NCBI GenBank assembly: GCA_945865815.1
Contig: CAMBFR010000001.1
Span: 69 to 64,068, forward strand
Length of the DNA: 64,000 nt
Origin: Candidatus Sulfopaludibacter sp. SbA3
GTDB taxonomy: Bacteria; Acidobacteriota; Terriglobia; 20CM-2-55-15
Direction: 5' to 3'
Shown here: piece after piece, positions 7,750 to 58,385 of the stretch
How the letters are laid out: every line of letters starts with the position of its first letter
How positions within the stretch are numbered: position 1 is the stretch's first letter
Notes under the pieces: model-generated
Told to the model about the DNA's origin: nothing
What the model saw: the letters and a program-made list of their open reading frames with translations, nothing else
Database searches by the model: none
Translations under genes and position numbers: made by a program

Positions 7750-7823
7750 GGGCGCTTAGCTCAGTTGGAATGAGCGCTACCTTGACACGGTAGAGGTCAT
7801 CGGTTCGATCCCGGTAGCGCCCA
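7750..7823 (+). tRNA. tRNA-Val(GAC), CCA not encoded
   Basis: Acceptor stem GGGCGCT/AGCGCCC, anticodon arm CTACC-TTGACAC-GGTAG, T-loop GGTTCGATCC. Confidence 0.96.
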
Positions 7824-42046: not shown

Positions 42047-42071
42047 CCGCCCTTCCTCTAGAATCTTTGAA

Positions 42072-42251
42072 CCCTGCGAAGTGCGTGATGGTTCCACTAA
42101 TTTTGAACCAATGCTTATTTGATAGGGAGTCTGCGTTTCGTCGTGGTGTGCGGGCCTAACCCCTCGGGGTACCAAGGTCCCCTAAAGCGCGAATAGGACA
42201 CCCACCTGTGTAGCAGGTTCAAATAAGGTGAGCCACACGGCTTCTGCGGGG
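42072..42251 (+). ncRNA. ssrS: 6S RNA
   Basis: About 180 nt after zapA; ends pair (CCCTGCGAAG/CTTCTGCGGGG); TTGAACC/GGTTCAA helix; GGGAG and CCCACCTG conserved 6S elements. Confidence 0.85.
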
Positions 42252-42342
42252 CCAACTGTAACCAGTTGGATCGCGGCTGACCCTCCTTGGTGGCGTCCAA
42301 CCCATCCATAGGGATGCGGGTACGCCTTAGAAAGTAGCTTCC

Positions 42343-55986: not shown

Positions 55987-56832
55987 CTACATCAACGCTG
56001 TCGTACGGCGGACCCACGGCGCCTTGCCGGCTTCTTTCGAGACCTTCTCCATATCCGCAACGTATGCGGTCGACTGCGTCAGGATGTGATGCAGGTCATT
56101 TCCGATGCTGATGAGCGGGAACCCCTTGTTCAAGAATTCGCCAACTCGCGACGTTCCAAAGAGGAAGAGGCCGAGAATGACATTGTTCTTAGCTGCAGCA
56201 GCCTTTAACTTATCGGTCGCCTGCATCAACTCGGGGGACGTGTACATGTCGGGGAACTTGTACTTTTCGAAAAGGCCCATCGACATGCAGAGATCATTCT
56301 GACCGAGGAAGAGAAGATCCACGCCCTTCACCGCCGCAATCTCGTCAATGTTCTTGATGCAATCCGCAGTCTCGACCTGCAGCGCGGTGATCACATTGTC
56401 GTTGGCCGCGCCGGCATAACCCAGCAAGCCGGCCTTGTTCATACTGCGCTGCGGGAAATATACGGACCGGGTTCCGGCGGTTGGATAACGCGTACAACTC
56501 ACGGCCTGCCGGGCTTCCTCGGCAGTATTGATGTATGGCACGAGCACGCCGTCCGCGCCCATATCGAGCGACTGCTGAATACCCGAACGGTCGCTATAAC
56601 CACCAACTCGTACAAGCGACTTGGCGCCTCCGCTCGAAATGCCAGCCAGCATTGTTGACAGAGTTTCATTGCTCATCGGCCCATGCTGGGTATCAACCAG
56701 CAGCCAATCCAGGCCGCTGTGCGCCAACTGCTCTGCAACAGTTGAACTGTGCGAATTCAGAAACAAGCCCATCTTCGGGGTTCCCGCACGCAACTGCTTC
56801 TTAAACTCGGCTCCGCTTAAAGTCTCACTCAT
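55987..56832 (-). CDS. HpcH/HpaI class II pyruvate aldolase family protein
   Basis: DWLLVDTQHG, LVRV, LDMGADGVLVP, QVET and LFLG.NDL. Confidence 0.92.
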   Translation of the reverse strand: MSETLSGAEFKKQLRAGTPKMGLFLNSHSSTVAEQLAHSGLDWLLVDTQHGPMSNETLSTMLAGISSGGAKSLVRVGGYSDRSGIQQSLDMGADGVLVPYINTAEEARQAVSCTRYPTAGTRSVYFPQRSMNKAGLLGYAGAANDNVITALQVETADCIKNIDEIAAVKGVDLLFLGQNDLCMSMGLFEKYKFPDMYTSPELMQATDKLKAAAAKNNVILGLFLFGTSRVGEFLNKGFPLISIGNDLHHILTQSTAYVADMEKVSKEAGKAPWVRRTTALM

Positions 56833-57179
56833 TTAATTCTTCTCCTGTGCTTCTCGTTAAATTGAATTCCTGCCGAAAAAAGACCGTCTTCCCACCCATC
56901 GGCATACGACGCGTCTGCAACCGGACCTTTTTTTTTGGCACGCAACTCTACCTCATTTATGGAATTCATGAAAGTGGGAGGTTTCTTTCGGGTAGTGTCT
57001 ATCGGGCGTCTACGCTTTCCGATGAATCGCACCCTTATTCAACGCATTTGTGTAGCCGGTTACCCAATCCCCGGAACATGGCCATAGTAGTTTCAGCAAC
57101 TTACTGTTCACAACAAATTGGACAGCCGCGTGCAAAAGAAAGATACGTGCGATCGAAGGCAAACCGAACGGAGGAAGTA

Positions 57180-57437
57180 GTGGATTCCAGACAGGCACAA
57201 CCCGGAACACACATAATGTTCTTCAGCCTCCTCGGCGGTGTGACCGAACTGAAAAAAATCGGTTGCTCCATGGGCCAGGCAGACCATTACATTCTGCGTC
57301 ATCATGCCAAATCGCAGACACCAGCCGAAATCATAAAAATTGGATCGGTCATGGACTCAATGTCGTGGACAGGCTTTCGTTATCAGGACGATCACTTCAG
57401 CTTCGTCAAGGGAACACATTCAGTCCGGTTTGACTAG
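57180..57437 (+). CDS. Small hypothetical protein (85 aa)
   Basis: GGAGG RBS before GTG 57180; no recognisable motif. Confidence 0.4.
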   Translation: MDSRQAQPGTHIMFFSLLGGVTELKKIGCSMGQADHYILRHHAKSQTPAEIIKIGSVMDSMSWTGFRYQDDHFSFVKGTHSVRFD

Positions 57438-57460
57438 CACTCATAGATCGAGTTGCTGCT

Positions 57461-57620
57461 GTAGCCAGGGACGGCCGTCAGTTGCTCTTGGACCAGGACG
57501 GCAGCGGAGGGAAGGATACCGGAGGTCAAGGACGCCTCATCGCAACCAGAAGTAGCCGACGGACAGGCAAAACGGCAAAGCGCCTCACCGCTCAGGACGA
57601 GTTGTGAGGCGTTGTTATTT
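57461..57620 (+). ncRNA. Candidate CsrB/RsmZ-like GGA-rich small RNA
   Basis: Ten GGA motifs in 57469-57597, several in short hairpin loops, closed by a CGCCTCAC/GTGAGGCG hairpin with a T-rich tail. Confidence 0.6.
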
Positions 57621-57640
57621 ATGGGGTCAATTCCCGCTTC

Positions 57641-58336
57641 TCATTTCAGGGACTCCATCATCGCCTCCAATGCCTTTCGCGGACTCGGATCCTCTGTCAC
57701 TGCACGGCCAACCACAATGAAGTCCGCACCAGCCTCGATGGCGGAGCGCGGCGTAGCTATGCGCTGCTGATCATGAATGGACTGCTCCGGCATGCGGATT
57801 CCGGGCGTGACGATTCGAAAATCCGGCTTCACGGCCTTCCGGAGTAGTTGAATCTCCTGCGGCGAACAGACTACCCCGTCAATGCCGCAATCCTGGGCAA
57901 GCAGGGCCAGACGCCGCACTTGACTCTCGACAGCGTCCGGCACGCCGACCTCTCGGAGCGTGGGTTCGTCGATGCTCGTCAAGACCGTGACCGCCACAAC
58001 GACAGGCCTCGAACCCCCGGAATTTTCCTGCAGGCCGCGCGCAACGGTCTCCATCATATTCCGGCCGCCGCTTGCGTGGATTGTCATCATCGAAACGCCC
58101 CGCTTTGCCGCCTCGATGGCCGCCTGCTTAACCGTATTTGGAATATCGTGAAACTTGAGATCCAGGAAGACTTTGCCCCCATTGTCGATAATCTCCTTCA
58201 CAATTGCGGGGCCGGCAGCCATATATAACTGGCTGCCCACTTTGAACATCCCTGTGAGGGATTTCAATTCCCTGACGAGATTCAGCGCCTGATCCCGGGA
58301 ACTGACGTCCAGGGCGATGAGAATTCGCTCCTTCAT
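57641..58336 (-). CDS. pyrF: Orotidine-5'-phosphate decarboxylase
   Basis: FLDLKFHDIPNTV, VTVLTS, TPGIR and VVGR. Confidence 0.96.
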   Translation of the reverse strand: MKERILIALDVSSRDQALNLVRELKSLTGMFKVGSQLYMAAGPAIVKEIIDNGGKVFLDLKFHDIPNTVKQAAIEAAKRGVSMMTIHASGGRNMMETVARGLQENSGGSRPVVVAVTVLTSIDEPTLREVGVPDAVESQVRRLALLAQDCGIDGVVCSPQEIQLLRKAVKPDFRIVTPGIRMPEQSIHDQQRIATPRSAIEAGADFIVVGRAVTEDPSPRKALEAMMESLK

Positions 58337-58385
58337 TTCCTTGATGGCCGCGCCCAATCGGGCATGCATTCGCGTCCGCTCATTT

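Follow-up and report, generated by a model that had tools for sequence, protein, structure and literature searches.

The element described here occupies positions 57461 to 57620 of a 64,000-nucleotide (nt) stretch of contig CAMBFR010000001.1 from "Candidatus Sulfopaludibacter sp. SbA3" (hereafter, the window; the genome itself is labelled G000). On the forward strand it is preceded by a small open reading frame (ORF) for an 85-residue conserved hypothetical protein (57180-57437), which has a GTG start behind GGAGGA. On the other side are the convergent pyrF gene for orotidine monophosphate decarboxylase (57641-58369, reverse strand), which lies outside the element, and pyrD. An initial annotation had taken this region for an unannotated, free-standing RNA behind pyrF that resembles a CsrA sponge of the CsrB/RsmZ type, or serves as a sponge for a different GGA-binding protein, and had guessed an acidobacterial host. 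The host does belong to the Acidobacteriota, class Terriglobia, and the element, here referred to as A, is very probably a real RNA feature under selection that belongs, as a divergent member, to a new family. A GGA-rich multi-hairpin element with a terminator is indeed present, but its free-standing position did not hold: the element directly follows the 85-residue ORF, and it has diverged from its paralogs, which make up a larger family with a more elaborate fold. The RNA starts by 57455, leaving 18 to 25 nt after the ORF stop (57437), with no terminator between them.

The element contains ten GGA triplets within 129 nt (57469-57597), starting at positions 57469, 57490, 57496, 57506, 57510, 57514, 57521, 57530, 57561, and 57595, and there is not a single TCC within 57461-57620, as had been counted initially. 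The window has a mean of 2.5 GGA per 130 nt, and its maximum of 10 is reached at 57461-57620 alone, which makes the element the densest spot of the window; the maximum for TCC is 8. Across the whole genome (4.34 Mb), a density of 10 or more GGA per 130 nt is reached in 84 strand-specific regions, so that GGA density alone is not unique. Counting clusters of A(N)GGA(X) hairpins throughout the genome does not single out A or its paralog B (see below) either: there are 52 clusters of at least three such hairpins, B has three, and two of the three top clusters inspected are inside long open frames. The fold of 57438-57625 has a minimum free energy of -67 kcal/mol with z = -1.61, and 13 of 200 shuffled sequences were equally stable, which is not significant for this single sequence; the opposite strand gives z = -0.90. 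Thus, it is conservation and homology, not the GGA count, that make the element more than a chance occurrence.

In the predicted structure, helices are named P1 to P5b after the B family. The A-type closing helix is formed by UGCUGU (57457-57462) and ACGGCA (57572-57577), as predicted by RNAalifold on the copies from G000, from G001 (same genus), and from G011 (another genus); a U-G pair of the window is replaced with C-G in G011, which, with three sequences only, is weak evidence. Next comes the hairpin GCC-AGGGAC-GGC (57464-57475), an ANGGAX hexaloop on a 3-bp stem that is equivalent to the near-invariant P3 of the family and whose GGA has an unpaired probability of 0.82. A long-range helix (57476-57562), in which approximately 57476-57491 pairs with 57546-57562, is the counterpart of P4 and encloses the internal GGA sites. 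These include CC-AGGAC-GG (57493-57501), which corresponds to the yAGGA site conserved between P4 and P5; GGGAAGGAUACC (57509-57520), the counterpart of hairpin P5a (GGG-ACGGAA-CCC in B) with an imperfect stem in the window; and the hairpin GAGG-UCAAGGACG-CCUC (57522-57538), the counterpart of P5b, with an unpaired probability of 0.90 for its GGA. One more hairpin, GCC-GACGGACA-GGC (57555-57568), was read from the sequence. The element ends in a terminator-like hairpin (57582-57620), CGCCUCAC...GUGAGGCG, with an inner CUC-AGGAC-GAG (57591-57601) and the tail UUGUUAUUU; in its stem, CGCCTCAC/GTGAGGCG, 57582-57589 pairs with 57605-57612, followed by TTGTTATTT. The four small hairpins and the terminal hairpin with a T-rich tail that had been named initially (57464-57475, 57493-57501, 57555-57568, 57591-57601, and 57582-57612) are thus all found in the sequence. 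A simple terminator scan did not list the 57582-57612 hairpin because of its interrupted T-tail. This is the only terminator-like hairpin of the unit formed by the ORF and the element, which is the RsmW-type 3' untranslated region (UTR) arrangement, and the convergent pyrF transcript might terminate there as well. Over the whole element, the mean unpaired probability is 0.65 for GGA versus 0.42 for other purines, and the loop sites at 57469, 57514, 57530, and 57595 reach at least 0.80; the window element thus displays several exposed GGA motifs, as do the Csr/Rsm decoys.

No Rfam family accounts for the element, and the proposal of an unannotated RNA has been confirmed in this respect. With gathering thresholds, cmscan of the whole window reports only a 6S RNA (76 bits; 42068-42256) and a tRNA (7750-7823); a search of 56800-57800 at E values up to 10 gives only a chance snoRNA match on the opposite strand; and the seven related loci holding B, the third RNA (C), and the A-type relatives have no match at E values up to 1. 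Signal recognition particle RNA was also considered and rejected, as the proper one is found elsewhere in the same genome.

A blastn search of the intergenic stretch against related genomes yields an 89% identical copy in G001, weak matches of 74% identity in another genus, and a second locus in the same genome. The block shared with G001 at 89% identity (57372-57620, forward strand) comprises the last 22 codons of the ORF and the entire RNA element. Between the two genomes, identity is 68% at the third codon positions of pyrF and 64% at those of HpcH, the two flanking genes, and 78% in the other part of the intergenic region; the excess of identity in the element over the flanking third codon positions points to purifying selection. 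In G001, the region corresponding to 56983-57371 of the window, with the ORF start and the first ~64 codons, is replaced by 86 unrelated bases and the element is kept. Orthologs of the A type directly behind the same small ORF are found in G001 and G011. A minimal version of ~50 nt, consisting of the P3 hairpin, the GGCGGAACGGCAAAC box, and the terminator, follows the ORF homolog in G007, and in G016 and G031 a plain terminator hairpin alone is found at this place. The three full A-type copies share the UGCUGU/ACGGCA closing helix, a long P4-like helix, and the terminator, and these three sequences are suggestive of a common structure. The P5b stem is wholly different between GAGG/CCUC in the window, GAA/UUC in G011 (GAA-[ACGGAU]-UUC), and GCGAA/UUCGC in B, and the loop GGA is kept in each. 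Scanning metagenomes with a 20-nt pattern for further A-type copies gave three matches in GC-rich, non-resembling surroundings, which look like chance.

The wider family became apparent from B, a second GGA-rich RNA gene of ~205 nt in the same genome (contig C34:5402-5639, reverse strand), which has a TTGCAA-N17-CAGAAT promoter-like element, a 5' hairpin, the closing helix UUCCUAG/CUAGGAA, GGA-loop hairpins, and a terminator. The comparisons that follow cover 35 genomes of one Terriglobia order, which consists of only one family, and 26 genomes from ten other families of the class. By blastn, B is present in 30 of the 35 genomes, often in two to four copies and sometimes in tandem. A covariance model, R1, built from 42 aligned copies of B (145 positions, 28 pairs), finds full-length members in 31 of the 35 genomes of the order and in none of the 26 genomes outside it. 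In the window, R1 matches a core at 57463-57563 of the forward strand (model positions 27 to 131; 35 bits; E = 9.5e-8), and in the whole-genome search this copy (E = 6.3e-6) is the only match besides B. Full members score far higher than 35 bits, with 93 to 149 bits for the 57 matches that reach at least 93 bits. Searching a species-level genome collection for the exact 19-nt core pattern retrieved 43 stretches, on which cmsearch with R1 gave 42 matches; the 33 strongest of these (97.7 to 143 bits, in 31 stretches) all come from Terriglobia, Solibacteraceae, or acidobacterial metagenome-assembled genomes. Twelve stretches with the core pattern from other phyla had either no R1 match or one of no more than 28 bits and were regarded as chance occurrences. 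Altogether, the family includes about 60 copies in 31 genomes, with three subtypes and two promoter classes. This conserved, covarying family of putative small RNAs (sRNAs) is absent from Rfam and, judging from these searches, is previously undescribed.

The helices of the family show numerous compensatory changes. In an alignment of 61 matches, 48 of them distinct, that was fitted to the model (A5), a fit that biases pair counts upward, standard pairs make up 94.6% of the cells, versus 85.8% in column shuffles (0 of 500 of which reach 94.6%) and 30 to 49% when the partners are slid by 1 to 3 columns, and 16 of the 28 pairs have changes on both sides. Clearly compensated pairs are CG in 20 and UA in 23 sequences for P1, CG in 28 and GC in 18 for P2, CG in 33 and AU in 11 for P5, and CG in 29 and UA in 13 for P5b. 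Helix P4 is not alignable by column; its cognate strands have a mean pairing energy of -11.1 kcal/mol, versus -7.6 for non-cognate and -6.2 for shuffled strands. The GGA triplets are kept in almost all of the 48 distinct sequences: in 45 in the P3 loop C[AGGGAC]G, in 46 in the internal loop yAGGA, in 47 in the P5a loop (e.g., G[ACGGAA]C), in 46 in the P5b loop (e.g., A[ACGGAU]U), and in 47 in the GAAGGAG box, which is partly paired in P2. The conservation of GGA loops in relatives, on which the initial proposal depended, is therefore seen together with compensatory changes in the stems. Three of the five GGA sites are in hairpin loops of the ANGGAX type whose stems vary. A high-affinity site for CsrA-type proteins has been described, in the passage cited, as a "hexa-loop ANGGAX on top of a stem" (PMC4005645), and the in vitro selection (SELEX) data quoted in another article give the core CA-R-GGA and the consensus RUACARGGAUGU (PMC7652899); the family loops C[AGGGAC]G, G[ACGGAA]C, and A[ACGGAU]U fit both the hexaloop and the SELEX consensus as worded there. 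The window copy has the P3 hairpin GCC-AGGGAC-GGY (57464-57475) and the GGA triplets at 57496 (J4/5), 57514 (P5a), and 57530 (P5b). It has neither the P1 (CUAG.../...CUAG) and P2 (CUCC/GGAG) closing stems nor the GAUGAAGGAGACUAG and GAAGGAG boxes, and the R1 match ends at model positions 27 and 131. Because a different closing helix, UGCUGU/ACGGCA, takes the place of these stems here as well as in G001 and G011, we consider the window copy a divergent subtype and not a typical member.

Members of the family appear to come with their own promoters. Of 30 distinct upstream regions of type-1 copies, 28 contain a sigma-70-like element, and in 7 of 8 loci checked, from six genera, the type-1 copy is divergent to a DsbA-like gene. 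Type-2 copies (genera g2, g4, and g10) have a sigma-54-type TGGC-N8-TGC at a fixed distance in all 17 of 17 cases; this element is seen in none of the 30 type-1 regions, and its background frequency is 0.004 per 36-nt window. Directly upstream of the window copy, neither a sigma-70 nor a sigma-54 element could be recognised convincingly. The type-2 loci L063 to L073 include tandem arrays of two or three copies (e.g., L069:582-1644), each with its own sigma-54-type -24/-12 element and terminator; in three such loci inspected, no gene for an enhancer-binding protein or another regulator was found beside the array. In G032, a type-1 copy (contig C386:6740-6813, L062) breaks off after ~100 nt into unrelated sequence and is apparently a disrupted gene, the sole family copy found in that genome.

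The genome, which is 98% complete, was searched for csrA and fliW, as had been suggested, and the search returned a single CsrA-family gene (PF02599, 62.9 bits) and none for FliW, flagellin, or the canonical CsrA (CsrA1). The only CsrA of the genome is an orphan paralog, CsrA2 (contig C38:33049-33300; L001:1501-1755), which retains the beta-1 residues Leu2, Ile4, Arg6, and Lys7. A candidate CsrA-like binder is thus encoded, but it has Thr at the position of Arg44. This residue is called particularly critical for RNA binding in the article cited (PMC7652899), and canonical GGA binding by CsrA2 is uncertain because of this replacement. Among the 528 relatives of CsrA2 in the protein collection, the named ones are from Acidobacteria/Terriglobia. 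In the order, CsrA is encoded in 33 of 35 genomes, CsrA2 in 28 of 35, and FliW in 28 of the 34 relatives of SbA3; wherever coordinates were compared, FliW adjoins the canonical CsrA1 (79 bits, IYRxEIYEAI). Unlike SbA3, which has no FliW, most of its relatives in the order have FliW beside a canonical CsrA. In the ten other families, CsrA is found in 2 of 26 genomes, both times beside FliW, and the RNA in 0 of 26. Within the order, CsrA2 and the RNA family are both present in 27 genomes and both absent from three (G013, G020, and G024, all of genus g3). CsrA2 without the RNA family is seen in one genome, G032, which has the truncated copy, and the RNA family without CsrA2 in four, namely, G016, G017, and G025 (88, 68, and 92% complete, respectively) and G003.

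A scan for A(N)GGA(X) loop clusters revealed a third intergenic RNA, C, on the forward strand of contig C5 (~75730-75990; L206:1130-1400). It has about seven A(N)GGA(X) hairpins (GCC-ACGGAA-GGC, GCC-AGGGA-GGC, GGGC-AGGAA-GCCC, AGC-AGGAA-GCU, and others) and a strong terminal hairpin, is matched neither by R1 nor by Rfam, and was found by blastn only in G000, G001 (split over two contig ends), and G031, where its stems are compensated (GGGC/GCCC versus GAGC/GCUC). Of the three RNAs, C bears the closest resemblance to a classic Rsm RNA. Although C is unrelated to A and B, the CCAGGGA loop motif recurs in it, and the presence of C supports the notion of a lineage that uses GGA-hairpin RNAs. An inverted repeat, CGTCA-N6-TGAC, is located upstream of C in all three genomes and has 12 sites in the SbA3 genome.

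In our view, these observations are best explained by a decoy for a CsrA-type protein, the most likely function of the element, to which we would give about an even chance. This reading draws on the homology detected with R1, the selection on the element, the covarying helices, the fixed GGA sites, the presence of CsrA2, its co-occurrence with the family, RNA C, and the family promoters. The window segment 57455-57620 would encode an sRNA of the A type, which belongs to a new GGA-hairpin family confined to one Terriglobia order. We infer transcription of the A-type RNA, its 5' end, its protein binding, and the identity of the binder along the following lines. The RNA would most likely be produced as the 3' part of the small-ORF (57180-57437) transcript, or else from its own promoter, and end at the 57582-57612 hairpin; its closed multi-helix body would present GGA in short hairpin loops and in an internal loop. 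Together with its paralog B, and perhaps C, A would bind a protein of the CsrA family and, as its decoy, titrate it. In SbA3 this protein would be the orphan CsrA2, and its titration would lift the hold of CsrA2 on mRNA leaders that contain GGA. A more tentative extension, possible but in our judgment not probable, is a two-branch CsrA system throughout the order, in which FliW checks CsrA1 and thereby serves flagellin control, and decoy RNAs (the sigma-70 type 1, the sigma-54 tandem type 2, the A type, and C) titrate the Arg44-less CsrA2. If so, the SbA3 genome, in which no flagellin, FliW, or CsrA1 was found, would keep the RNA-controlled branch only.

Several findings weigh against a decoy for CsrA. 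The protein itself is atypical: CsrA2 has Thr aligned to Arg44 (IHTRLK versus VHRE of RsmE/CsrA), with an Arg at position 45, and has no C-terminal helix but instead a Pro-rich linker and a conserved ...PLEGLPAAAGxxKRR basic tail. The clearest point against strict dependence on CsrA comes from G003, a complete one-contig genome that has no CsrA match and yet keeps a diverged 48-bit copy of the family, in which the P3 GGA is lost and four of the five sites are kept. The co-occurrence of CsrA2 and the RNA is almost wholly inside one clade and is not independent evidence. On the RNA side, near-invariance extends over ~20 nt at the P3 hairpin as well as over the box GAUGAAGGAGACUAG, beyond the needs of a GGA decoy; one conserved GGA is within helix P2; and in the single-sequence fold of B the GGA exposure is 0.42 versus 0.49 for other purines. 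Alignment A5, from which the pairs were counted, had been fitted to the structure of the model, which favours pairing. As for the window element, P1 and P2 are absent from it, its own single-sequence fold has a z value of only -1.6, and three of its ten GGAs (57490, 57561, and that of the terminator loop, 57595, which reads ATGA there) are lost in G001, where the GGA at 57521 is shifted.

Some of these features would suit the main rival reading, a structured sRNA with another mode of action, which we consider rather unlikely. Such an RNA would pair with mRNAs through its invariant boxes, GCCAGGGACGGUAGUC and GAUGAAGGAGACUAG, possibly with Hfq, in the manner of Qrr, or dock another protein, and its GGAs would be part of a seed or of the tertiary fold and not CsrA sites. 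The near-invariance of two boxes of ~15 to 20 nt across genera is typical of seeds; the type-2 genes are multi-copy and tandem with sigma-54-type promoters in 17 of 17 cases; Hfq is encoded in the SbA3 genome; the RNA persists in the CsrA-less G003, and the CsrA2 protein has no Arg at position 44; and the body closed by the long-range P1, P2, and P4 is unlike a simple string of hairpins. However, repressing sRNAs usually have C/U-rich seeds complementary to the Shine-Dalgarno sequence, whereas the conserved boxes are purine-rich and themselves resemble that sequence. Base-pairing or tertiary contacts also do not account well for GGA being kept specifically in three loops whose stems change freely, nor for the CCAGGGA loop motif in the unrelated RNA C.

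The short distance of 18 to 25 nt between the ORF stop and the element, with no terminator between them and no convincing promoter directly upstream, raises the alternative of a cis-acting 3' UTR and terminator of the small-ORF mRNA that affects stability or termination, perhaps via CsrA, and that is shared with pyrF as a bidirectional terminator. The same order of ORF and element in G011, its mini-version in G007, and the plain terminator hairpins behind the ORF homologs of G016 and G031 agree with this possibility. It is nevertheless improbable, as the element of G001 remains 89% identical although the ORF start and first ~64 codons are missing there, and the element is homologous to free-standing sRNA genes that have promoters. 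Besides, a 3'-UTR origin is compatible with decoy action, as the account of RsmW cited here indicates (PMC4950607). That A is a decaying, non-functional duplicate of B whose GGA richness is inherited and not selected is very improbable. In favour of it are the R1 match, which covers only positions 27 to 131 with 35 bits versus 93 to 149 for full members, the lack of P1 and P2, and the three GGAs out of ten that differ in G001. Against it, identity with the G001 element is 89%, versus 64 to 68% at synonymous-like sites; its position and architecture persist in a second genus, where the P5b stem and the closing helix are compensated; and its terminator is intact.

As putative decoys, the members of the family are comparable to CsrB/CsrC and RsmX/RsmY/RsmZ in being non-coding RNAs of 150 to 250 nt with a rho-independent terminator, GGA in ANGGAX-type loops and unpaired linkers, and sometimes a GGA in the terminator loop; in both cases several paralogs of the RNA gene occur in one genome, together with a gene for a CsrA-family protein. 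The new family differs in that it matches none of the Rfam models for CsrB, CsrC, RsmX, RsmY, RsmZ, and RsmW, is closed by long-range helices, contains two near-invariant boxes, and comes from Acidobacteriota. Its promoters are sigma-70-like or sigma-54-like; no search for an upstream box of the GacA/UvrY type was made. Unlike in the gammaproteobacterial systems, the candidate partner, CsrA2, has Thr for Arg44, and most genomes of the order carry FliW and a canonical CsrA, whereas fliW is reported in the article cited to be absent from Gammaproteobacteria (PMC7652899). In its arrangement, the window element resembles RsmW of Pseudomonas aeruginosa, a GGA-rich element (7 GGA versus 10 here) that follows a small hypothetical ORF (74 versus 85 residues) at a distance of less than 30 nt, with no terminator between them (PMC4950607). 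According to the same account, RsmW is thought to be processed from a 3' UTR, and its binding by RsmA was shown in vitro (PMC4950607). There is no sequence relationship between the two RNAs, and the ORFs are unrelated as far as tested (the window ORF has no Pfam family). The type-2 members, and only these, recall the Qrr sRNAs of Vibrio in being multi-copy, sometimes tandem, and preceded by sigma-54-type promoters and in having a highly conserved block. The Qrr sRNAs are ~100 nt long, multi-copy, and sigma-54-driven and act by Hfq-dependent base-pairing; they do not have GGA-loop hairpins.

To our knowledge, Acidobacteriota is a phylum with almost no described sRNAs, and we found no open-access literature with a title pointing to a Csr-type sRNA in Acidobacteria. 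The new family co-occurs with a lineage-specific CsrA paralog and, in most relatives, with FliW. If the proposed binding is true, RNA and protein antagonists can coexist, split between CsrA paralogs, and the family would open a way into the post-transcriptional control of soil bacteria that are abundant but poorly tractable. With a binder other than CsrA, the family would still represent a well-defined new structured RNA with a model that is ready for curation.

The small ORF next to the element appears to be a real gene for a conserved protein, as judged from its relatives. Three of these, at 72 to 100% identity, come from the protein collection, and tblastn adds homologs from two genera of the family, g7 and g11, at 29 to 47% identity; the homologs share the motif W-[TSI]-G-F-x-[YF]...H-[WF]-S-F. 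The protein belongs to no Pfam family and has no usable match in the protein atlas, and its AlphaFold (AF2) model is a low-confidence all-beta prediction with a predicted local distance difference test (pLDDT) score of 49. This 85-residue protein is order-specific, and in three genera it is directly followed by an A-type RNA element, a minimal one in G007. Further upstream, at 56913-56965 of the window, there is a -24-like TGGCAC without a proper -12 GC. The same region contains a hairpin followed by T9 and the block TTTGGCACGCAACTCTACC; this arrangement is kept in G001, and the block reappears as TTTTTGGCAC upstream of the small-ORF homolog in G016.

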